Shown here in pieces: positions 10,448-62,042 of a stretch of DNA of 64,000 nucleotides. The stretch's first letter is position 1; the number at the start of each line of letters is the position of its first letter. The stretch is from assembly GCA_965219445.1 (NCBI GenBank), contig CBDCNQ010000004.1, positions 1,024,001 through 1,088,000 on the forward strand. The letters run 5' to 3'. The notes below the pieces were generated by a model. It was not told the origin of the DNA. It worked only from the letters and a program-made list of their open reading frames with translations, and did not search any database. The position numbers and the translations under genes were made by a program. Source of the DNA: Longimicrobiales bacterium (GTDB lineage Bacteria; Gemmatimonadota; Gemmatimonadetes; Longimicrobiales; Gaopeijiaceae).

Positions 10448-12347
10448 ATCGGGATAGGGGAGGACCGGCGTTCCCGGTCCTTCCCCTCCCACACCACCAG
10501 GCATGCGGGTCCGCACCTGGCGGTTCGGTGAGTTGAGGTCAGTACGGCGTGAGCCGGGGCACACCCAGCTCGTCGAAGTACGCCCCCGGCAAGGCCGTGT
10601 GCAGGGCGTGGTGCGCAGCCACGTGCCACCAGCTTCGCGCGAACCGAGCAGCTCGCCAGGCGAGGTTCTCGCTCACACCGCGAGCCCTCAACTCCCGGTA
10701 CGCTGTCCTTCCTCGTTTCCACTGGCGTAATTGCAATGTACGCAGCCGGCGGTGGATCCATTGGTCCAGGTCTCGGAAAACCCCCGGTGTGTCCGCTAAG
10801 CCGAAGTATGCCTTCCACCCCAGCACGTAGCTCCGTAGCTCTTCCGCCACCTGTTGCAGGCTCCGCCCGCCGCTCCGGCTTGTAATCTGCCGGACTCGCT
10901 CTTTGAACTTCGTCAGGGCCTTCTTGCTGACCCGGCGCTTCACGACCTTCCCTGCCGCTACCCAGAAGCTGTAGCCCAGGAACTGTCGATCCCACACTCG
11001 CGCCACCGCGCTCTTTTCCTCGTTGACCTGAAGCCGAAGTTTCCCGTACAGGTGCCTCAGCGCCTGCATCACACGTTCTCCTGCCCGCCTCGACCGCACG
11101 TATACATTGCAGTCATCGGCGTACCGGACAAACGCGTGTCCGCGTAGCTCCAACTCCTGGTCCACTTCGTCCAGGAGCACGTTCGCCAGCAACGGCGACA
11201 ACGGTCCGCCCTGAGGCGTCCCCATGTGCCGCTCCATCACCACCCCGTTCGCCATGACTCCGGCTTCCAGGTAGCGACGGAGGATCCGCAGCATCGCCTT
11301 ATCCTCGATCCGCTTTGCCAGCCGCCCCATCAGCACGTCGTGGTTCACCCGGTCGAAAAACTTCTCCAGGTCCACATCCACCACCCATCGTCTCCCTTCC
11401 TGGATGTAGTGCTGCGCTTCGCGCACCGCATCGTGTGCTCGGCGCCCAGGCCGGAAGCCGTGGCTGTGCCGACTGAACGTCGGGTCGAACCTCGGTTGCA
11501 TCACCTGCAGGATGGCTTGTTGGATGAACCGGTCCAGCACGGTCGGAATCCCCAACTCCCGGACCCCTCCCCCACTCTTCGGTATCTCCTGCCTTCGTAC
11601 CGGCTTCGGTTGGTAGGTCCCCGCCAGCAACCGCTGTCGGATCTCCCCCCAGTGCCTGCGCAAGTACTCTGGCAGCTCCTCCACGCTCATCCCGTCGATG
11701 CCCGGACTGCCCTTATTCTGCCGCACGCGTTTCAACGCTCCTACGAGGTTGGCACGCCCGACCACCTCCTGCATCAGGAGATGCTCGCTTCCTGAGCGCT
11801 CGTCTCCATGGGCCACCGTTCCGGCTTCGCCACTCCCCTCTACCTTCGGGGCTTCACCCCTATCCTCCAGTGGGAGCCCCAGTTGCCTGGACTCCTGGCG
11901 CATGGCCTTGCCGAGGTCCACGGTCGTCACGCTCTCCTCTCCGTTCGGCCCTTCGTCCGACAAAGCTGGGTCCAAGCGCATCATGCACTTCGTCGGCCTA
12001 CTATGGCCTCTGCTGACTTCTCGCTCCGCCGGCAGGCCCAACAGCGCAGTGCCGGCGTCACCCTTTCAGGCGTCAGGCGAGACCTCCCCGGGTAAGAACG
12101 ATGACCTTCCCCGCACAATCGCCGGATCTACGCCGCTTCCCCTTGGTCGCAGGAGCTTCGCGGTCAGTGGTCCGCTCGCCCCGGTCCGCAGCGCCTCGTA
12201 TCCGGTTCCTGTTCGTCGACTCACGGGTTCGTTTCACGCTTCGTTCAGCGTACGCCTCACGACGAACGCCTTGCGCTTCCCTTCGGTCCCTGCGACCAGG
12301 TTCCGGGAGGACTTTCACCTCCAAGTCATCGCCCATGCCGGGCCCAC
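10448..12347 (-). mobile_element. Group II intron, class IIC, full length with intron-encoded protein
   Basis: 5' end GTGGGCCCGGCATGGGCG. The 3' end has DV GAACCGCCAGGTGCGGACCCGCATGCCTGGTGGTGT (CGC triad) and DVI ending CCTATCCCGAT. An RT ORF lies inside. Confidence 0.9.
10539..11903 (-). CDS. ltrA: Group II intron reverse transcriptase/maturase without endonuclease domain; start approximate
   Basis: NKGSPGIDG, LGIPTVLDR, DLEKFFD, GTPQGGPLSPLL, RYADD, FLGY and GWKAYF (domain X) motifs. Confidence 0.95.
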   Translation of the reverse strand: MRQESRQLGLPLEDRGEAPKVEGSGEAGTVAHGDERSGSEHLLMQEVVGRANLVGALKRVRQNKGSPGIDGMSVEELPEYLRRHWGEIRQRLLAGTYQPKPVRRQEIPKSGGGVRELGIPTVLDRFIQQAILQVMQPRFDPTFSRHSHGFRPGRRAHDAVREAQHYIQEGRRWVVDVDLEKFFDRVNHDVLMGRLAKRIEDKAMLRILRRYLEAGVMANGVVMERHMGTPQGGPLSPLLANVLLDEVDQELELRGHAFVRYADDCNVYVRSRRAGERVMQALRHLYGKLRLQVNEEKSAVARVWDRQFLGYSFWVAAGKVVKRRVSKKALTKFKERVRQITSRSGGRSLQQVAEELRSYVLGWKAYFGLADTPGVFRDLDQWIHRRLRTLQLRQWKRGRTAYRELRARGVSENLAWRAARFARSWWHVAAHHALHTALPGAYFDELGVPRLTPY

Positions 12348-23470: not shown

Positions 23471-24154
23471 ATCGGATAGGAGGGGGACTCGCGCCCCCCC
23501 GTCCCCCCACACCACCGGATGTACGGGTCTCGTATCCGGCGGTTCCCCTCAGCTTTGTAGCGCCAAGTACCTCAGCGCCAGGGCTCGATTCCCCTCCGAC
23601 GCCGACAGCGCTTGCCGCTCCCCTGTGGGCGCAAATCGGCTTCCGGCCTCTCCGCCTCCCAAGGGGCGCACCGCGGCCCTCTCCCCGAACAGCGAGAGCT
23701 GGTCCGTCATGCCTTCCCGCGGCTCCGCGACCACCGAGTCATCCGGGTCTGCTCCCTACACCAAGAAGTTCAGCCCTTCCCAGCACGTACCGCGCCGGTA
23801 CTTTGGCGTCTGCTGCCTCCTCCGTGCCTATCCATCGTCATCGCTGACGCTGTAGTCCGGATCAACCGGACAGGCCCAGAGGCCTCCCAGGGTAAGCCCT
23901 GTCTCTTTCCCGCAGTCCCCGCCGGATTTACCCCCGCCGCGTCCGGGTAGCTTTCGGGCGTCACCGTCCGATGCCGCCTCACCCCGCGGTCATGGGCCTT
24001 GTATCCGATTCCTGTTCGTCGGGGCCGCGTTTCGCCTCCGGCTTCCTTCAGATCCTGCCTCACGACGGGTACCCTTGCCCTCGGCTATCCGGTTCGGTGC
24101 TACCTCCGTCCGTTGGAGACTCTCACTCCAGACACAGGCCATCACCTGGCACGC
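23471..24154 (-). mobile_element. ORF-less (RT-deleted) group IIC intron, about 684 nt
   Basis: 5' GCGTGCCAGG follows a terminator. DI motif GACGAACAGGAATCGGATA is shared with the full intron. It has a DIII/GAAGGGCTGAAC junction, DV GAACCGCCGGATACG..., a 3' CCTATCCGAT, and only a 53-codon fused ORF relic. Confidence 0.85.
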
Positions 24155-53388: not shown

Positions 53389-53970
53389 TCAGTGGGGTTC
53401 CGGCCTTTCATCGTTTATTGGCCGGGGAGAGGCGATCGCCTCTCCCAAGAGACGATCGATCGTGCCGTCGGACAGGAGCTCGGGGTGAAGCGAGTGAGCC
53501 AGGCGGGCTCGGATCTCCATTCGGAGCTCCCGGGTGTTCTCGTCCGGCCTTCCCTGCTCCTTCAGTTGCTCGAACACGTCGACGACGGTCTCGGAAAGCA
53601 GCGTCTGTGCCCTCTCAAGCGACACGTCCCCGTCCACGGTGGGTTGCCTTCGCCCTTTCAGCACCCGGAGGTGCCTGTCGAACTCATAGCCCCCTTCGTC
53701 GAGGGTCGTCTCGACCGCTTGAGCGGTCTGTCGAACGGTCGTAAGCCGTTCCAACACCGTGTCGAGCGCGCTTCCCGCCTCGTCATCCTCGGCCGGCACC
53801 TCCTTGGACGCCCACCAGGATGCGATCCGACGAAGCTCGGCGATTCGCGCATCGATCTCCTCCGAGGTTCCCCACCGGAGCAAGAAGGCGTGGTGCTCCC
53901 GCAGGGTGGCGCCCACGTCTTGCACGCCGGCCGCTGCGCCTTGCTCCGCCTCATCGTTTCGGCGTGTCAT
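53389..53970 (-). CDS. Hypothetical protein
   Basis: 193-aa ORF with GGGGAG RBS and host-like codon pattern. Confidence 0.55.
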   Translation of the reverse strand: MTRRNDEAEQGAAAGVQDVGATLREHHAFLLRWGTSEEIDARIAELRRIASWWASKEVPAEDDEAGSALDTVLERLTTVRQTAQAVETTLDEGGYEFDRHLRVLKGRRQPTVDGDVSLERAQTLLSETVVDVFEQLKEQGRPDENTRELRMEIRARLAHSLHPELLSDGTIDRLLGEAIASPRPINDERPEPH

Positions 53971-54257
53971 CTCCCCTTTTCCTCCACCTCTGCCATCATC
54001 GACCGCCCCAACTTCCCGAGGGCGTCGGGCCTCCCGTCAAGCATGTATCTGTCGGTCGGCACCGGCAACCCCAACTGGGGCCGCCCCCGATCCCGAAAGG
54101 GGCGCGGTGCTGCCTTCGACGAGCACTCCGAAATCCTCGAAAGAGCCCGGCTGGCTCGCTTGTCCCCCCGAAGGGCCCTCAGTACCTTGTCGCTACCCAT
54201 GGGCTTCAGATCTTCCATCCGTCGCCCTCGCGACCCCGAGATCATCCGTCCGGCTCC

Positions 54258-56159
54258 ATGAAGCACTCCTACCGCATCGTACTCGGCGTCTGCGCGCTGC
54301 TCGCGGTCGGCGCGGGGCTTCTTTGGAGCCCAGACGTGGACGAGGACCTGAGGGAGAACCTTCCGGAGCAGACGATGGGGGAAGGGTTCACGACCTCGGT
54401 CACGTGCCAAACGTGCCATCCGGCTCAGTACGACGCCTGGCACCGTTCCTACCATCGGACCATGACCCAGGCGGTTACGCCTTCCACGGTGCTGGGAACG
54501 TTCGACGACGTCGTCCTCGAGGACCGCGGCTACCGGTGGCGCCTCGAGCGCCGGGGCGACGAGTTCTGGGTCGAGATGCCGGACCCGCTCTGGTTCAATC
54601 AACCACCGGGGTTCATGCAGCGTTGGCCCGAGAGCCCACCGCGCTTCGAGGCCCGGGTGGTGATGACCACTGGCTCCCACCACATGCAGAACTACTGGAT
54701 ACGCCGACCGGAGGAGGCCGAAGGCCCTCTCGGGCCCGACAATGGCGCACTCGTCCAGGTCCCATGGGTCTGGCTGATTCCCGAGGGGAGATGGATCCCC
54801 AACCAGGATTCGTTTCTCAGGCCATCGAGCTCCTCCGTCCAGGGAGCGACACCCTGGAACGGTACCTGCTCCCAGTGCCACTCGGTAGGGACCGAGCCTC
54901 GGGCTCTGGAGTACCTCGGCCGCTTTGACACCCGGACGGTGGAGCTGGGCATCGCGTGCGAGGCCTGCCACGGTCCGGCCGAGGAGCACGTCCGTTTCTA
55001 TCAGTCGCCGGTGAGGCGTTATCTCCGGTATTTTCGCCAGTGGCAGGATCCGGACGCCCGCGATCCGACCATCGTCAACCCCGAGAAGCTCGAGCCCCGC
55101 CGCTCCGTGGAGACGTGCGCTCAATGCCACAGTTTCGGAGAGTGGACGGATCAGCAGGCGTACGGGAGGAATGGGGTGCCGTTCCGAGCCGGAGACGAAC
55201 TGGACGAGTACAGGTCCGTGTTCCGCTACACGGATGACCCCGAAGATCCGCTACTGCCGGAGATGCTAGGGAGCGATCCCCTCGCCCTAGAGGGCAATTT
55301 CTGGCCCGACGGAACGATTCGGGTGGCGGGTCGGGAGTACAACGGCCTCCTCGAAGACGCCCATCTCCAAGCGAGCGAGCTGACGTGCCTTTCGTGCCAT
55401 TCGATGCACGAGTACGAGGCCCCGGACACCCAGCTCGATCCCGAGGTGGCTGGAGACCGATCGTGCCTGAACTGCCACGCGGACTTCGCCGACCAGATCT
55501 CGGAGCACACCCGACACCTTCCCGAGTCTTCGGGCAGCGAGTGCATGAACTGTCACATGCCACACACCACGTACGGCCTCTTTTCAGCCATGCGGAGCCA
55601 CCGGATCGACAATCCTAGCGTTCAGGTCTCGGTGGAGAGCGGGCGTCCCAACGCGTGCAACCTCTGTCACCTCGACCAGACTCTGGAGTGGTCGAGTCGG
55701 TATCTGACGGAGTGGTACGGCCAGCCCCTTGTGGAGCTGGACGAGGACGAGCGATCCATCGCCGCCTCAATCCTCTGGACTCTGAAGGGTAATGCGGCCC
55801 AGCGCACGATCCTCGCCTGGCACCTGGGCTGGGACGCGGCTCGGGAGGCGTCGGGCGGTACCTGGATGGCCGCGTATCTAGCGCAGCTCCTCACGGATTC
55901 GTATTCGGCGACCCGGCAGGTGGCCTATCGATCGATCGTCGAACTCCCCGGGTTCGAAGCGTTCGAATACGATTATGTGGCCCTCCGTTCGGAGCTCGAG
56001 GAAAAGGCTACCGAGGCAACGGAGCGCTGGCTCGGATTCGGCGGGCCGGATCAGGCCAGGCCTCATCTTCTCATCGCCGCAAACAGCGAGATCGACGTCT
56101 CCGAGTGGCTCCGACTACTCGCGGAGCGGGACCAGCGGCCCCTGGCAATCATCGAATGA
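54258..56159 (+). CDS. Octaheme cytochrome c with N-terminal membrane anchor
   Basis: Eight CxxCH motifs: CQTCH, CSQCH, CEACH, CAQCH, CLSCH, CLNCH, CMNCH and CNLCH. Confidence 0.88.
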   Translation: MKHSYRIVLGVCALLAVGAGLLWSPDVDEDLRENLPEQTMGEGFTTSVTCQTCHPAQYDAWHRSYHRTMTQAVTPSTVLGTFDDVVLEDRGYRWRLERRGDEFWVEMPDPLWFNQPPGFMQRWPESPPRFEARVVMTTGSHHMQNYWIRRPEEAEGPLGPDNGALVQVPWVWLIPEGRWIPNQDSFLRPSSSSVQGATPWNGTCSQCHSVGTEPRALEYLGRFDTRTVELGIACEACHGPAEEHVRFYQSPVRRYLRYFRQWQDPDARDPTIVNPEKLEPRRSVETCAQCHSFGEWTDQQAYGRNGVPFRAGDELDEYRSVFRYTDDPEDPLLPEMLGSDPLALEGNFWPDGTIRVAGREYNGLLEDAHLQASELTCLSCHSMHEYEAPDTQLDPEVAGDRSCLNCHADFADQISEHTRHLPESSGSECMNCHMPHTTYGLFSAMRSHRIDNPSVQVSVESGRPNACNLCHLDQTLEWSSRYLTEWYGQPLVELDEDERSIAASILWTLKGNAAQRTILAWHLGWDAAREASGGTWMAAYLAQLLTDSYSATRQVAYRSIVELPGFEAFEYDYVALRSELEEKATEATERWLGFGGPDQARPHLLIAANSEIDVSEWLRLLAERDQRPLAIIE

Positions 56160-56208: not shown

Positions 56209-56919
56209 TCAGGGAGGATCTCGGTCACCACGAGTGTCATAGATCCAAGGCCGTAGGATCCGATCTTTGCTCCTCATCTCCGCCGCACTGTCGCTGTGCT
56301 GAAGCCGTTCATCCAGGGTGACGTCCGAGCCCCGAAGCAGATTCACGCGCCGTCTGGAGTCAATCTGGAAGGGAATGGGCCCCATACCCGGGCGCTCGAT
56401 CGCCTGTCTCACGAGGTCGACCGTCATTTCCACTTCTGGATTCGCCCTGACCCCGTCAGCGATCCTTCCGACCACCTCTTCGCCGAGAGTCACCGGCAAC
56501 AGACCGTAGTCAAAGCAGTCATCATAGAACACCGTTCCGAAGCTGGGCGCGATGACCGCTCGCATGCCGCACTGCATGAGCCGGATGACCGCAAACGCCT
56601 GTAGGCTGCCACGGCCGAAGTCCCGACCAGCGAGCAGGATCGAAGCATCGCGATAAGGCTCTTGATTGAGGACGAAATTCGGATCTTCCGATCCGTCGGG
56701 TCGATATCGGAAGCCATGAAAGGCGTGTTGCCCGGCCCATGAACCGTCGTGGGTGTGCGGCTCGAGCTCTGCCGCGCCTGGGTCTATATGCACGGCGTGA
56801 AGGTCGTGAAGCTCGGGGCCCACTGGGGCGATGTACTCGCCTTCGATGTCGCGTTGCAGGAAAGGCGCCGCGATGCCGGTATGCCGCACGAACTGGGGGG
56901 CGGTTCGAAAGATGGTCAC
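56209..56919 (-). CDS. LeuD-like small subunit 2
   Basis: FVRHTGIAAPF, FVLNQEPY, ILLAGRDFGRGS and VIAPSFGTVFY. Confidence 0.8.
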   Translation of the reverse strand: MTIFRTAPQFVRHTGIAAPFLQRDIEGEYIAPVGPELHDLHAVHIDPGAAELEPHTHDGSWAGQHAFHGFRYRPDGSEDPNFVLNQEPYRDASILLAGRDFGRGSLQAFAVIRLMQCGMRAVIAPSFGTVFYDDCFDYGLLPVTLGEEVVGRIADGVRANPEVEMTVDLVRQAIERPGMGPIPFQIDSRRRVNLLRGSDVTLDERLQHSDSAAEMRSKDRILRPWIYDTRGDRDPP

Positions 56920-56973
56920 GACTCCTCGAGCGTTTCCTCCGGGAGCGAACTCCGGCTACTACCTTGGCACGAC

Positions 56974-56990
56974 TGACAGTTTGCTGTCAA
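56974..56990 (-). promoter_or_regulatory. Palindrome TGACAG-N4-CTGTCA overlapping a TTGACA -35 box
   Basis: Visible about 55 bp upstream of LeuD-like 2. Confidence 0.45.
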
Positions 56991-57042
56991 TTCAGCCTCC
57001 CGAGCCGGGCAAGGTAGGCGAGCTGCTGGCTCATCCCACGCG

Positions 57043-57075
57043 AAGAAAAGAAGAGGGGCCCCCAGGGGCCCCTCT
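57043..57075 (-). terminator. Rho-independent terminator after LeuD-like 3
   Basis: AGAGGGGCCC/GGGCCCCTCT stem with a T-rich tail on the minus strand. Confidence 0.7.
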
Positions 57076-57102
57076 CGCTGCCCAGCACCGTTCCCTCAGG
57101 CC

Positions 57103-57789
57103 TCAGCGGCCAGCGCTACGATAATCATAGACCCAGGGACGCTCTCTCTCGTCCTCCGCTCTCTTCGTCCTGGCCGCCGGCAGGTGTGGATTGATTTCTT
57201 CCAGGTCGTCGATAGCGGTCAACAGCTTGTTGCGCGTTCTGGCTTCGGTCTGGAAGGGAATGGGCTCCACGCCGGGCATCTCGATCACCTGCCTTTCCAG
57301 ATCCACCGCCATCGGTATTCCCGGGTTTGCCCGGACCCAGTCCGCGATCCTATCGACCGTCGGCCTGGGAAGCTGCACCGTCAACACGCCGTACTGCATC
57401 GCGTTGGTCAAGAAGATCGGTCCGAAGCTTTGGCCGATGTATACTCGTACTCCCCACGCTGCCAGGGGCCGCGTGATCGCGCCCGAGCGCGAGCTGCCAG
57501 TGCCATAATTCAGACCAACGATCATGATCGAGGCACTGCGATACTGCTCTTGATTGAAAACGAAGTCCGGCCTTTCCGATCCGTCAGCAAAGTACCGGAT
57601 GTTGGCGAAGGCGAGCTCGGACGGGGTATCTATACCCACGCCGGCGAGGCCAGTCGCTGCACCCCCCGGACTGGAGACGTCCGTGCTCACGTTGTTAAAC
57701 ATGAAGGGTGCCGCCAAGCCGACGTGCCGTACGAAGCGTTGGCCTCCTCTTCGCGGACCTGTCTGCTGGTTAGCTTGTTGCATAGTCAT
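57103..57789 (-). CDS. LeuD-like small subunit 3
   Basis: NVSTD, NYGTGSSRS, SFGPIF..N and VDLERQVI; directly downstream of the large subunit. Confidence 0.82.
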   Translation of the reverse strand: MTMQQANQQTGPRRGGQRFVRHVGLAAPFMFNNVSTDVSSPGGAATGLAGVGIDTPSELAFANIRYFADGSERPDFVFNQEQYRSASIMIVGLNYGTGSSRSGAITRPLAAWGVRVYIGQSFGPIFLTNAMQYGVLTVQLPRPTVDRIADWVRANPGIPMAVDLERQVIEMPGVEPIPFQTEARTRNKLLTAIDDLEEINPHLPAARTKRAEDERERPWVYDYRSAGR

Positions 57790-57809
57790 TTCCTCTACAG
57801 GCCTCTCCT

Positions 57810-59306
57810 CTACAGGTAGGTTCGCACGTCGGCGACGTAACCGGCGATGGCCGAAGCGGCTACCGTGCTCGTGCTGGCCAGAATGGTGTTGGTGCCTCCG
57901 CCCTGGCGACCGATGTAGTTGCGATTGGAGTTCGACACGCAGCGGTTACCCCGCGTTACATAGTCGCCGTTCGAGCCGTAGCACTTCGAGCAGCTGGGCT
58001 CACGCCACTCCCATCCCGCCTCCCTGAAGATGCGGTCCAGGCCCTCCGCCTCTGCCTGACGCTTGACTGGCTGTGACCCTGGAACGACCCACGCGGACTG
58101 GATGTTCGATGCGACCCGGCGTCCGCGGACCACTTCGGCCGCGGCGCGAATATCACTGATTCGATTCTCGGCGCAGGATCCGATGAACACTTCGTCGATC
58201 GGCGTTCCCAGAATGGGCTCACCCGGGGTGAGGCGGCTGTACTCAATGGCCTGCCGCAACGTCGCCCGCTTCTCCGCGGGCGCATCGTCGGGATCGGGAA
58301 TCCGGTCGTTGATCCCTATGGCGTGCTCGGGATTGATGCCCCACGTGACCTGCGGCTCCACCCCAGTCATGTCGATCGTCTCTTCCCGGTCGAACACCGC
58401 AGCCTCGTCGGTGGGCAGGCCTCGCCAGAACCTCACGGCCTGATCCCAGTAGCGGTCCGCGGGGGCGAACTCCCGGCCCGCCAACCACTCGAACGTCGTG
58501 TCGTCGGGACCCACCATTCCCGTCAGAGAAGCCATCTCTATGGCGAGATTGCAGATCGTGAACCGGGCCTCCTGCGGAAGGGCCCGCACGACGGGACCGG
58601 CGTACTCCACCGCGTAGCCGGAGCCCGAGTCCGTACCGAGCTGGGAGATGATACGAAGGATGATATCCTTCGATCTGAGCCCGGGGCCGAGCCTGCCCAC
58701 GACGTTGACCCGCATGGTCATCGGACGGAGCCGGATGACGGTCCCCGTGCGGAGAATGTTGGTTGAGCTTTCACCTCCCCAGGAGATCAAGCCCATCGCC
58801 CCGTGCGTGCAGGTGTGGCTGTCGCCGGCACAGAGCACCATGCCCGGCTGGCTCAACCCGGTCTCGGGGCCGATGATGTGCTGGATGCCGTGTCTGGGAT
58901 CGAACTGGCCGAACGTGTTGAAGCCCAACTCCCTCATCAACTCGGCATGCTCCTCGTACGCCTGCCAGCCCCTACCCAGCGAGCGGTCCGTATACCTGTT
59001 CGGTGACGTGGAAACCCCATGGTCGGGCACGGAAAAGAAGATCTCGGGATTCGCGACCTCGACACCCTCCGCGCGCAGATCCAACACCTGATCGGGACTA
59101 CCACCGATACACCGGTCGACCTGGAGCAGATCGGTGCGGCCGCCGAGGTTAGTCACCACGTGCGCATCCCAGATCCTGTCGAACAGGGTCGTCGCCACTT
59201 GCTGGCGTTCTCGTGACGCTGACTGACCGTCGCGATCCGCGAAGGGATTGGTCGACACCGCGAACCCTGCCCCTACAGACGTCTTGATGAAGTTCCTTCT
59301 TTTCAT
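57810..59306 (-). CDS. LeuC-like aconitase-family [4Fe-4S] large subunit with Tat-like N-terminus
   Basis: TLFDRIWDAH, PDH, GIQHI, GDSHTCTHGA, FIGSC, PSCSKC and SNRNYIGRQG; N-terminal KRRNFIK. Confidence 0.88.
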   Translation of the reverse strand: MKRRNFIKTSVGAGFAVSTNPFADRDGQSASRERQQVATTLFDRIWDAHVVTNLGGRTDLLQVDRCIGGSPDQVLDLRAEGVEVANPEIFFSVPDHGVSTSPNRYTDRSLGRGWQAYEEHAELMRELGFNTFGQFDPRHGIQHIIGPETGLSQPGMVLCAGDSHTCTHGAMGLISWGGESSTNILRTGTVIRLRPMTMRVNVVGRLGPGLRSKDIILRIISQLGTDSGSGYAVEYAGPVVRALPQEARFTICNLAIEMASLTGMVGPDDTTFEWLAGREFAPADRYWDQAVRFWRGLPTDEAAVFDREETIDMTGVEPQVTWGINPEHAIGINDRIPDPDDAPAEKRATLRQAIEYSRLTPGEPILGTPIDEVFIGSCAENRISDIRAAAEVVRGRRVASNIQSAWVVPGSQPVKRQAEAEGLDRIFREAGWEWREPSCSKCYGSNGDYVTRGNRCVSNSNRNYIGRQGGGTNTILASTSTVAASAIAGYVADVRTYL

Positions 59307-59751: not shown

Positions 59752-60768
59752 GTGTCGATATCCATTGAAGCAGCAGGATCCACCGAAACAGCAGGATTCC
59801 AACTCCTCAGAGAGGTGGAAGAATCCGTCGACCGGAGAGTCGTCGGACAGAAAGACACCCTGAAAGGGCTTCTGATCGCGTTCCTCACCGGTGGACACGT
59901 CCTTCTGGAGGGGTTCCCCGGAGTGGCGAAAACTCTGCTCGTCCGATCTCTCGCCGGGGCCCTACACACCTCATTCGGACGGATTCAATTCACGCCAGAT
60001 CTCCTTCCCGGGGACGTGGTGGGGGCCCCGGTCTATCATCAAGCGACGGGCGAGTTCGTCGTCCACAAGGGACCGGTGTTCACAAATCTGTTGCTGGCTG
60101 ACGAAATCAACCGGGCCCCGCCGAAGGTTCAGTCCGCCCTCCTGGAAGCGATGGAGGAGGGGAATGTCACGATCGACGGGACGACGTACGCCCTTCCGCA
60201 CCCTTTTTTCGTTCTCGCCACCCAGAATCCAATCGAACAGCACGGCACGTATATGCTCGCCGAAGCCCAGATCGATCGGTTTATGATGAAGCTGCGAATG
60301 GGTTATCCCGAGCGGGAGCAGGAACGGGAGATCATCGAGCGCATCGCCCTGAGCCCGGCCGAATCACCCGACGCCCCGGCCACCGACATGAGTGATCATG
60401 GGACTCGGGGCGCGTCACAGATCCTGGAGGCTCGGGCCGAACTCGACGGCGTGAACGTCGACCAGAAGATCCAGGAGTACGTCGTTGATCTGGTGTTCGC
60501 GACCCGGGATCCTGCTGACGCGGGTCTGTCGGACTTCGTGCCCTTACTCGAGTTCGGCGGTTCACCGCGGGCCTCCATCTTTCTAACCCGGGCAGCGCGG
60601 GCGCACGCATATCTCGCGGGTAGGGACTTCGTGCTCCCCGACGACGTGAAGGGTGTGGCTCACCCCGTCCTCCGGCATCGCCTGCGGACGACCTACGAGG
60701 CGGACGCTCAAGGAATCGACCCCGACGAGCTGATCGACCGGCTCCTGGCCGCGGTGCCTGCGCCCTAG
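59752..60768 (+). CDS. moxR: MoxR-family AAA+ ATPase
   Basis: GHVLLEGFPGVAKT, RIQFTPDLLPGD, LADEINRA, ATQNPIE and DRF. Confidence 0.93.
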   Translation: MSISIEAAGSTETAGFQLLREVEESVDRRVVGQKDTLKGLLIAFLTGGHVLLEGFPGVAKTLLVRSLAGALHTSFGRIQFTPDLLPGDVVGAPVYHQATGEFVVHKGPVFTNLLLADEINRAPPKVQSALLEAMEEGNVTIDGTTYALPHPFFVLATQNPIEQHGTYMLAEAQIDRFMMKLRMGYPEREQEREIIERIALSPAESPDAPATDMSDHGTRGASQILEARAELDGVNVDQKIQEYVVDLVFATRDPADAGLSDFVPLLEFGGSPRASIFLTRAARAHAYLAGRDFVLPDDVKGVAHPVLRHRLRTTYEADAQGIDPDELIDRLLAAVPAP

Positions 60769-61070
60769 GAGGGTGATCGGAAAGGGGGGCGGGTCGCGCA
60801 CAGGGCGCTTGTGCGCGTTCAGACAAGGAACGACGACGAGGCGTAGCAGAGCTACTCCGAGGAGGAGAGACGCAGGATCAACCGCACAACCGCCCTGTGC
60901 CCACAACCATGTGGAGCATGATCTTACACGTTGATGGGTTGCTGTGGCACGACCCCATCTCCGTTGTTGGAGCTCCTAGCCGTAGCGAATGCTATGGCGT
61001 CGTTGCTCCGCCTCGGAGCTAGGGCCGTGGCATCCGCAACGCGGCCCACCCCCCTTTCCGATCACCCTCC
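60768..61070. ncRNA. Candidate highly structured RNA or non-autonomous element filling the moxR-DUF58 gap
   Basis: 31-bp terminal inverted repeat (29/31 Watson-Crick), an internal 17-bp stem and several small hairpins. Confidence 0.6.
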
Positions 61071-62042
61071 ATGCCTCTTGGGAACCCGACGCGGATGTTG
61101 AGAAGCCTGCCGAGGCGTGCTCTTCGGCTGCTGGCGCGCCCTGCGCGCGACCTTCCGTCCCCGGAGCCGCTCCGGGAAGTTCGGCGGCTCGATCTGCGCA
61201 CCCGTGGATTCGTGGACTCACTCTACGTCGGTGAGTACGATTCCATCTTTCTCGGTCAGGGCATGGAATTTTCGCACGTTCGAGCCTACCAGCCCGGCGA
61301 GGACGTCCGCATGATCGATTGGAGGGTCACGGCGCGGGCCGGCACGCCTTTCGTTCGCCAGTTCATCGAGGAGCGCGACCTCCACGTCGTACTCCTCGTG
61401 GACGTCTCGGGGTCGGCCAGATTCGGTCCCGGGGAGAAGAGTCCGCAAGAGGTGGCGGCGGAGATCACTGCCGCGCTGGCCTTCGCAGCGACTCGGCACA
61501 ACGACCGAGTTTCCCTCGTACTCGTGAGTGATCGAGTCGAGCACTTCGTTCCCATAGGATCGGGGCGCAGGCATGTCTTTCGTCTGCTGACCGAACTGAT
61601 CACCCACACTCCGCAAGGGCGGGGCACCGACCTGAGCGTCGGGCTGAACCGGCTCGGCGATACCCTCCTTGGCCGGGCCACGATCTTCCTCATCAGTGAC
61701 TTCATTCAGAGCAACGCCGACGCGTCCTTGCGTAACGCGTTGATGAGGGTGGGATCCGTGCACGATCTGGTAGCGGTCCGGCTTTTGACAGCGGCCACGC
61801 TGGAGCTACCCGACGTAGGATGGGTCGAGATGAACGATCCCGAGAGTGGTCGCAGGATCATGTTCGACAGTGGGCAGCGGAAGGTACGGGAGGAGTACGA
61901 TCGTAGCGCCCTCCGAGCTCAGGCGGACACGGCGGCCCTCATTGGCGAGGTCGGGGCCGAGCTGCTCGACGTCGACACCGCTTCCGATCCGCTTGCCGCT
62001 CTCACCCGCTTCTTCCGAATGCGTGGGGGCAGGCCCCGATGA
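61071..62042 (+). CDS. DUF58 domain protein
   Basis: GMEFSHVRAYQPGEDVRMIDWRVTAR, VDVSGS and LISDF; follows moxR. Confidence 0.9.
   Translation: MPLGNPTRMLRSLPRRALRLLARPARDLPSPEPLREVRRLDLRTRGFVDSLYVGEYDSIFLGQGMEFSHVRAYQPGEDVRMIDWRVTARAGTPFVRQFIEERDLHVVLLVDVSGSARFGPGEKSPQEVAAEITAALAFAATRHNDRVSLVLVSDRVEHFVPIGSGRRHVFRLLTELITHTPQGRGTDLSVGLNRLGDTLLGRATIFLISDFIQSNADASLRNALMRVGSVHDLVAVRLLTAATLELPDVGWVEMNDPESGRRIMFDSGQRKVREEYDRSALRAQADTAALIGEVGAELLDVDTASDPLAALTRFFRMRGGRPR

Follow-up and report, generated by a model that had tools for sequence, protein, structure and literature searches.

The moxR–DUF58 junction and its fold

The moxR gene of this Longimicrobiales genome is followed by a 303-nt sequence closed by a long stem, the base of which touches the moxR stop codon on one side and an ATG of the DUF58 gene on the other. 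The question raised by this locus is whether such a structure acts in the transcript that joins the two genes, or whether it is inserted DNA whose contact with both codons is incidental. The first-pass annotation had described a structured insertion matching no known RNA family, and had offered three options for it: a non-autonomous mobile element, an intervening or self-excising RNA, or a cis-regulator. A structured insertion outside Rfam is indeed present, and the first of the three options is the correct one: the 303-base fold represents a single copy of a family of small, non-coding mobile DNAs (MITEs) of uncultured Gemmatimonadota. Features of the locus are listed below; positions are those of the window, i.e. 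the whole stretch of 64,000 nt that was analysed.

59752–60768, plus strand: moxR AAA ATPase gene (open reading frame; Pfam AAA_3, E 4e-63, and AAA_lid_2)
60765–60768, no strand: CTAG target site, left copy intact (empty allele CCCTAGGCCTC in G006 and run X1)
60768–61070, plus strand: whole 303-nt element, two-module form, type-B ends
60768–60789, plus strand: left terminal inverted repeat, type B (IS1182 clade with GATCGGAAAG ends; 15/18 identity to an IS end)
60790–60798, plus strand: inner closing stem, common to end types A and B (conserved C·A at 60790 and U·G at 60794)
60799–60899, plus strand: left module, a 17-bp stem with compensatory pairs around the zipper hairpin
60832–60867, plus strand: conserved G·A-zipper hairpin (covariance model R1, E 1e-16)
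60900–60938, plus strand: middle hairpin, the region varying most among copies
60953–61021, minus strand: right module, a degenerate zipper-hairpin homologue on the opposite strand (model R1, E 0.003)
61040–61070, minus strand: right arm of the closing stem (right type-B repeat, 61049–61070)
61071–61072, no strand: altered right target copy, AT instead of the TAG of a clean duplication
61080–61084, plus strand: GGGAA motif, putatively a ribosome-binding site for the ATG at 61095 (GGGAG in G006)
61095–62042, plus strand: DUF58/VWA gene from its likely start (Pfam DUF58, E 6e-67)

Both long helices were found as first described. The closing stem (60768–60798 with 61040–61070) contains 29 Watson–Crick pairs, one G-U pair (60794) and one C-A mismatch (60790); it begins on the G of the moxR TAG at 60768, the first base of the element, and finishes just before the ATG at 61071. 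The second stem (60799–60815 with 60883–60899) is paired at 16 of 17 positions. Seven shorter hairpins had also been named, and the paired words of all seven are present, but CGTTC/GAACG, CCACA/TGTGG and CTCC/GGAG are absent from both the MFE fold and the family consensus fold and represent alternatives. The description of the element as fully folded, with almost no sequence unpaired, was overstated: 27% is unpaired in the MFE fold, and much of that fraction consists of conserved tandem G·A mismatches.

The MFE of the element is −178.3 kcal/mol (z −10.5), a value not equalled by any of 100 shuffled controls. The minus strand gives −177.2 (z −9.4) and beats all 100 of its shuffles, and the interior minus the terminal stem gives z −4.5. 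The internal helices covary among copies: in the left-module stem of 47 copies, U-A occurs 31 times and G-C 11 times at one pair, and U-A 43 times and C-G four times at another. The fold is real. No Rfam 15 family, ribozymes and introns included, reached its threshold or gathering score (best E 2.8), and a scan of this copy with 12 related loci returned no family either, the best hit being a weak miRNA-hairpin match far below the cut-off.

It is apparent that the element does not code for protein, as it contains just overlapping shadow reading frames, none of them confined to it; no terminator-like or sigma-70-like site was found in it. A length of 303 nt, a 31-bp closing stem, terminal inverted repeats and the lack of coding sequence are features of MITEs. 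The likeness of the 3′ arm to the 16S rRNA tail was also borne out, the tail of this genome being GATCACCTCC, one C shorter than the arm. This anti-Shine–Dalgarno-like arm is no more than an IS1182-type end.

A dispersed family at CTAG sites

A BLAST search of the source genome (G000), as had been proposed, yielded 38 clusters, of which 22 were taken as two-ended copies. Matches were found in 22 of the 41 genomes searched, and in 11 of 11 in the genus. A further 63 copies were fetched from relatives and four of these, which had no recognisable end, were dropped, giving a working set of 81 two-ended copies (22 from G000 and 59 from relatives); since the copies are related, counts drawn from this set are not counts of independent events. 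Exactly 303 nt is the length of 45 of the 81, and 147 of 148 ends retain the terminal G/C, as fits the boundaries first assigned. A near-identical copy of the genus element was also seen on a short contig of an archaeal bin (L238), which is probably mis-binned.

Dispersed copies are accompanied by filled and empty orthologous sites, as in other MITE families. In the sister species G006, whose flanks are 93% identical, the orthologous junction reads CCCTAGGCCTC, with neither the element nor the ATG. The same empty allele is carried by a contig from run X1 (13 differences in 997 bases, approximately 1.3%), which skips 60769–61072, or 304 nt, while the filled right junction is present in run X4; the insertion is thus polymorphic among close strains. 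Insertion sites are not conserved between species. In the seven same-site pairs from different species, the two copies are not each other’s closest (ranks 4–32 of 80), and one such pair differs both in end type and in orientation.

These empty alleles bear directly on the proposal that the element folds out of the mRNA and restores translational coupling. Precise removal would, by arithmetic, leave a TAATG overlap of stop and start codons, but the real empty allele has no ATG, and because the orthologous site lacks TAATG the coupling idea fails; moreover, this is the only one of the 81 copies with an ATG straight behind the element end. The reading as a self-excising or intervening RNA draws on the closing stem, which spans stop to ATG in this copy, and on one 211-nt contig from RNA run X15 that skips most of the element. 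The joint in that contig, from 60788 to 61091, is not at the stem base, however; it has 4-base microhomology, was seen in one contig at a depth of 2.7 and belongs to a diverged relative. As no ribozyme family is matched either, self-excision is regarded as extremely improbable. The X15 contig retains just the left type-B arm, fused shortly upstream of the ATG at 61095, and represents either an independent insertion that was later deleted or a reverse-transcription artefact.

That the stem touches the ATG is accidental and peculiar to this copy. The altered right target copy created the in-frame ATG at 61071, which the empty allele lacks. A second in-frame ATG, at 61095, is present in both filled and empty alleles, with a GGGA(A/G) motif 11 bases upstream, and from these sequences the DUF58 gene probably starts at 61095 rather than at 61071. 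Solo type-B left arms were observed a few bases upstream of likely start codons at four other loci (L134, L136, L145 and L147), where the GGAGG-like 5′ end of the arm might be used as a ribosome-binding site.

The moxR stop overlap likewise is a by-product, in this case of CTAG targeting. Of all tetramers in the genome, CTAG is the most strongly under-represented (observed/expected 0.70), and approximately 403 predicted genes end in it; landings on TAG stops are explained by CTAG targeting together with this supply of genes, and a TAG is formed at the left end in 29 of 81 copies. Where an ATG or stop codon touches a stem of this kind, the contact is usually a side effect of CTAG targeting; start-codon calls are affected by this, here that of DUF58.

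The claim that no target duplication exists was not confirmed: the left flank is a CTAG site, and its right copy is altered here. Duplications are poor across the family: CTA stands on both sides in 5 of 74 copies and flanks one end or both in 31 of 74, and the three bases outside the ends depart from CTA at 46% of positions, compared with a divergence of 5% in the core. Flanks overlap by 1–3 bases at 9 of 13 well-anchored empty sites, a count that leaves out 33 weakly anchored, 7 filled and 6 unmatched sites. At moxR the net insertion is +304 rather than +305, and the right junction is not clean though the copy looks recent. Target duplications are described as waning over time (PMC10969869). 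The poor duplications and the non-clean junction of a recent-looking copy count against movement by an IS transposase, the explanation preferred below.

Terminal repeats shared with several IS families

Most copies have the same inner 261 bases as the copy at moxR but another 21-base terminal repeat, termed type A; the copy at moxR is of type B. Among the 81 copies, 64 are A/A and 17 are B/B, with no mixed copy. Type B is scattered over the core tree, with 11 changes, and a single type-B clade is rejected (p-AU 0.0007). This scatter, and the finding that same-site copies are not closest to each other, suggest conversion among copies and re-use of sites.

The left type-B end is identical to the end of IS locus L269 at 15 of 18 positions, compared with 11 of 18 for the best other clade, and none of 500 shuffles did as well. 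Type-B-like ends are carried by full-length DUF772 transposase elements at L109, L119 and L266–L272, a clade represented in two genomes of the family and at seven metagenome loci. Type-A ends match full-length DUF772 transposase elements of the family (L099, L100 and L115; L098 is decayed). CTAG flanks are also common to these two IS1182 clades, which come from related genomes and metagenomes. The NCBIfam IS1182 model was the top model for the four transposases scanned, three of which scored at or over its cut-off; the transposase clades matching type A and type B are 30% identical over 108 aa. A third, distantly related IS1182 clade is present in G007.

When 33 element ends were compared with 21 IS ends, a small and hand-picked set, 24 matched one of them better than shuffles did (p<0.01) and nine matched none. 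The families matched were IS630 (12 ends), IS1182 (11 ends, in clades of 7, 3 and 1) and IS5 (one end), with up to 17 of 18 positions identical to a real IS end; the end at L216 agrees with that of IS630 locus L365 in 20 of 21 bases. Ends held in common with autonomous IS elements are a further MITE feature. The ends of the IS families themselves share some register (5–13 of 18), which could guide in-register swaps. In 2 of 12 IS loci checked, the IS sits directly on the element’s flanking CTAG, as a decayed IS1182-like element in L129 (1263–1300) and as an IS630 in L365; this is the geometry needed for end capture.

The interior is unrelated to the IS body, the zipper model and pattern having no match in 25 IS loci. 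Since the interior is not IS-homologous and the same core carries the ends of other families, the element is not a deletion derivative of one IS. Searches of plasmid, phage and viral-contig collections gave no match to it and, like the 25 IS loci, revealed no autonomous element carrying the zipper.

The transposase of the IS1182 clade matched by its ends is likely to move this copy in trans, as the end sequences suggest. The 12 genus genomes yielded no transposase of the matching clades; the IS1182 family model gave none in G000, G005 and G006, and no match over the cut-off in five genomes. That no cognate transposase was found in the genus, yet strains 1.3% apart differ in the insertion, counts against the explanation given below. 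Resident elements were considered as movers. An intact-looking IS5 with CTAG flanks and its own ends is present in the source genome (L001:1267–2469, on G000:C5), with numerous related IS5-type copies in G007, but its ends differ, and it is at most a candidate mover, as is the IS630 of G000. A 3-kb span between facing type-B ends (C4:252160–255244) and nine other spans contained, on reading of the sequence, ordinary-looking genes and no recognisable transposase. Viral scans for IS630-type ends gave two and zero matches, with no transposase within reach.

Changes in the two arms are frequently mirror images of one another. Over the outermost 21 bp, a set of 76 copies shows mirrored changes in 56 cases and one-sided changes in 36; type A has 16 distinct mirrored variants, seven of which were seen once. 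Equalisation of the two inner mismatches was seen in 16 of 140 cells, compared with 5 changes in 980 cells at the paired positions next to them. In bacteria, inverted repeats are corrected by template switching (PMC5941160), and such copying could account for the mirrored and equalised arms, as could selection on pairing. Copying cannot have produced the wobble-for-wobble swaps (U·G 12 and G·U 11 of 35) or the invariant G·A steps.

The explanation preferred here, with a probability of roughly 0.7, is that the element is moved by the transposases of visiting IS elements, and that its history has involved end capture with subsequent copying of arms, conversion between copies and a filter on orientation. 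The core would be an independent passenger, not derived from the IS bodies whose ends it carries. An IS would land on the element’s flanking CTAG, and an in-register switch or a deletion would replace one arm; arm-to-arm copying in the folded single strand would then rewrite the second arm, and conversion between dispersed copies would reshuffle cores among end types. The fold would most likely be kept because a folded single strand with a fixed length from end to hairpin helps in moving or re-ending the element.

The usual picture of a bacterial MITE is of a shortened copy of a single IS that depends on the transposase of that IS. MITEPsy1, which is paired with ISPsy2 in Pseudomonas syringae and belongs to the MITEs moved by IS5-superfamily transposases, resembles the present element in being non-coding and multi-copy, with IS-like inverted repeats, a CTAG target and filled and empty sites, but is described as tied to one IS in its host, with clean 4-nt duplications (PMC3189936). 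In the present family, by contrast, a single core bears ends from several IS families, searches of the host genus did not turn up the matching IS, insertion junctions are ragged and no IS was seen to contain the core. IS1182 itself (NCBIfam NF033551) shares the end sequence and CTAG flanks, and the element differs from it in having no transposase and an unrelated interior; ISPse1, of the IS1182 family, is reported to have 16-bp repeats and a 4-bp duplication (PMC3281130). The element works like an IS5-superfamily MITE. A literature search, with subscription papers outside its scope, listed no paper that deals with the family, describes a G·A zipper for any bacterial MITE or reports the swapping of ends between IS families; the MITE catalogue supplements of PMC11602168 may contain these sequences unremarked. 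What sets the family apart is one structured core of fixed length, with the ends of three IS families and a non-canonical hairpin found across phyla, which is still present in genomes that yielded no matching transposase. End-swapping, if true, would explain how such elements outlive their helpers and would offer a direct test of paired-end co-evolution.

The G·A zipper, its fixed distance and orientation

The zipper motif has three tandem G·A steps, single C-G spacers and a TAGC-loop-GCTA cap, and is retained in distant matches. Its position relative to the ends is nearly constant. From TAGC to the left terminal G is 76 bases in 64 of the 74 copies (of 81) that have the motif, and on the opposite strand the distance to the right end is 76 in 71 of 80. 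The 300-nt form has one zipper hairpin per strand, each 76 nt from its end, and the form of approximately 165 nt has a single central hairpin about 75 nt from both ends, which serves both. Short forms are mostly 160–172 nt long, while their stem sequences differ widely across phyla.

A pattern scan of GTDB genomes gave at least 105 stretches, 80 of which were fetched. The matches listed are mostly from Gemmatimonadota, with others from Sandaracinaceae, Deltaproteobacteria and Xanthomonadales, so that Myxococcota are included. The pattern fixes the motif, and conservation of the motif among its matches is therefore by construction; the positions it leaves free, on the other hand, covary among the matches listed, with 41 cells changed on both sides (0/500 shuffles) and U·G/G·U swaps. 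The distance is not set by the pattern either, and the terminal G lies 62–64 bases from the zipper in 29 of the 34 measurable matches among those listed, the exceptions being four at 81–87, with extra inserted sequence, and one with a mis-set end. The covariance model matches 16 of 121 genomes of the phylum; of 28 new loci examined, nine were measurable, and eight of these have a distance of 75–76. Zipper-type cores occur 74–76 bases from IS630-, IS1182- or IS5-type ends across phyla. It is possible, although this is put forward tentatively, that all belong to a cross-phylum class of non-coding mobile DNA defined less by its ends than by its structure, a zipper approximately 75 bases from CTAG, which gains IS630, IS5 or IS1182 ends by arm copying and is either a hitch-hiker that passes from one transposase to another by exchanging both ends together or the substrate of a hypothetical single-strand mobilising enzyme.

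A cut-and-paste transposase needs neither a fixed 75-nt distance nor an internal hairpin, and this counts against the preferred explanation. An alternative is that the zipper itself is the mobility signal, with a hypothetical enzyme binding the hairpin in folded single-stranded DNA and cutting about 75 nt away at CTAG in the manner of REPINs. The arms would then need just complementarity, and IS elements landing at the rare CTAG would supply IS-like ends at the right distance. The placement of one hairpin per strand in the 300-nt form and of a shared central hairpin in the short form, the constant length of most short forms despite their variable stems, the unclean junctions and the lack of a cognate transposase in the genus are all in keeping with such an enzyme. 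So is an array in G079 (L408:268–1147), where five 171-nt zipper units with IS1182-like ends lie head to tail, with CTAG/CTAA at the outer ends alone; further zipper arrays were observed in the same genome.

REPINs and their RAYT enzymes, as described in PMC3116915 and PMC3733652, provide a parallel: two inverted homologous units, conserved spacing and pairing, compensatory changes, tandem arrays and a plausible single-strand fold are common to both systems, and REPINs likewise conserve spacer length and pairing rather than sequence (PMC3116915). In the present element, however, GTAG forms part of the apical stem and is replaced by ATAG in some copies, with no free 5′ GTAG or CGTC tag next to a 20–40-bp palindrome as in REPs, and its ends are repeats of DDE-type IS elements with a CTAG target. 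The RAYT (Y1 HUH) gene was sought with two models (PF01797 and NF047646) in five genomes, 91–99% complete, and was found in none, controls being positive. Ends with up to 17 of 18 positions identical to real IS ends are unexpected for free arms, and, as reported above, no autonomous zipper-carrying element was seen. The element is accordingly not a REPIN, and an enzyme that reads the zipper is considered unlikely.

Orientation was determined for the 81 copies, 15 of which were uncalled and nine of which, in divergent or convergent gaps, were left out. In the co-directional gaps that remained, the 300-nt form is sense to transcription in 53 cases and antisense in four (nominal p 6e-12, from copies that are related to one another). 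On 150 test flanks the strand caller made 128 calls, all 128 of them correct when set against the gene predictions made for this analysis. In G000, remnants included, the ratio is 20:3. Outside the genus it is 13:4 among the pattern matches listed and 7 sense to 8 antisense, mostly short forms, among the model matches; the long forms there are sense in 5:0 (pattern, matches listed) and 3:0 (model), or 8:0 together. The contrast between 8:0 for long forms and the mixed 7:8 places the bias with the two-module form and not with the zipper, the shorter forms being little biased or unbiased, and the 7:8 ratio rejects a universal sense bias. A replication-strand bias was rejected as well: many G000 copies are on the minus strand, as are most genes, and orientation follows the neighbouring genes.

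This bias lends some support to the suggestion that the fold matters in the transcript, where copies might be kept mainly for processing, stabilisation or insulation of the operon mRNA, with selection acting on the RNA fold. The 53 sense copies in 57 co-directional gaps, the 20:3 ratio in G000, the 5:0 and 3:0 long forms outside the genus and the G-U-tolerant changes on the plus strand all agree with an effect of this kind, and orientation-dependent effects on mRNA are described for ERIC (PMC2229807). It is opposed by the 7:8 ratio among the phylum’s model matches and by the lack of conserved sites, the same-site pairs ranking 4–32 of 80. Element sequence was found in RNA runs X15 and X17, as a small share of words and in contigs from which strand, level and excision are not readable; in two RNA runs the depth of element relative to flank, again from contigs only, is similar in magnitude to that in two DNA runs, no more than copy number alone gives. 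Maintenance mainly for an RNA-level effect therefore appears improbable. Under the preferred explanation, the sense bias of the 300-nt form likely arose once copies had inserted, through filtering, with reversed copies doing more harm within operons.

Other repeat families show part of this combination of features. ERIC/IRU, NEMIS, RPE and bcr1 (PMC2229807, PMC3184786, PMC10969869) are described as having long stable folds in intergenic positions beside stop codons, with co-transcription likely; compensatory changes in bcr1 and orientation effects of ERIC are further likenesses. They are mostly A+T-rich and lineage-restricted in these accounts, and the parts of them drawn on here contain no cross-phylum G·A zipper, fixed distance from end to hairpin or exchanged end types.

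Several observations of lesser bearing were also made. Hairpins of approximately 20–30 bases with GGG(C/T/G)ACC tails are inserted at several core helix junctions, in both orientations and with the fold preserved, in the manner of nested passengers (L012, L011, L148, L153, L154 and others). Reverse transcriptase was examined as a factor common to carriers and rejected, being present in three of five genomes. The source genome has 13 reverse transcriptase frames of 508 aa with near-equal scores, and Rfam identifies two group II intron regions on the minus strand of the window (11948–12266 and 23773–24069), with a reverse transcriptase at 10968–11585. Closer to moxR, at 56209–59306 on the minus strand, are one large and two small open reading frames that we take to resemble subunits of isopropylmalate isomerase or aconitase, and adjoining these is a multi-CxxCH protein at 53820–56159.
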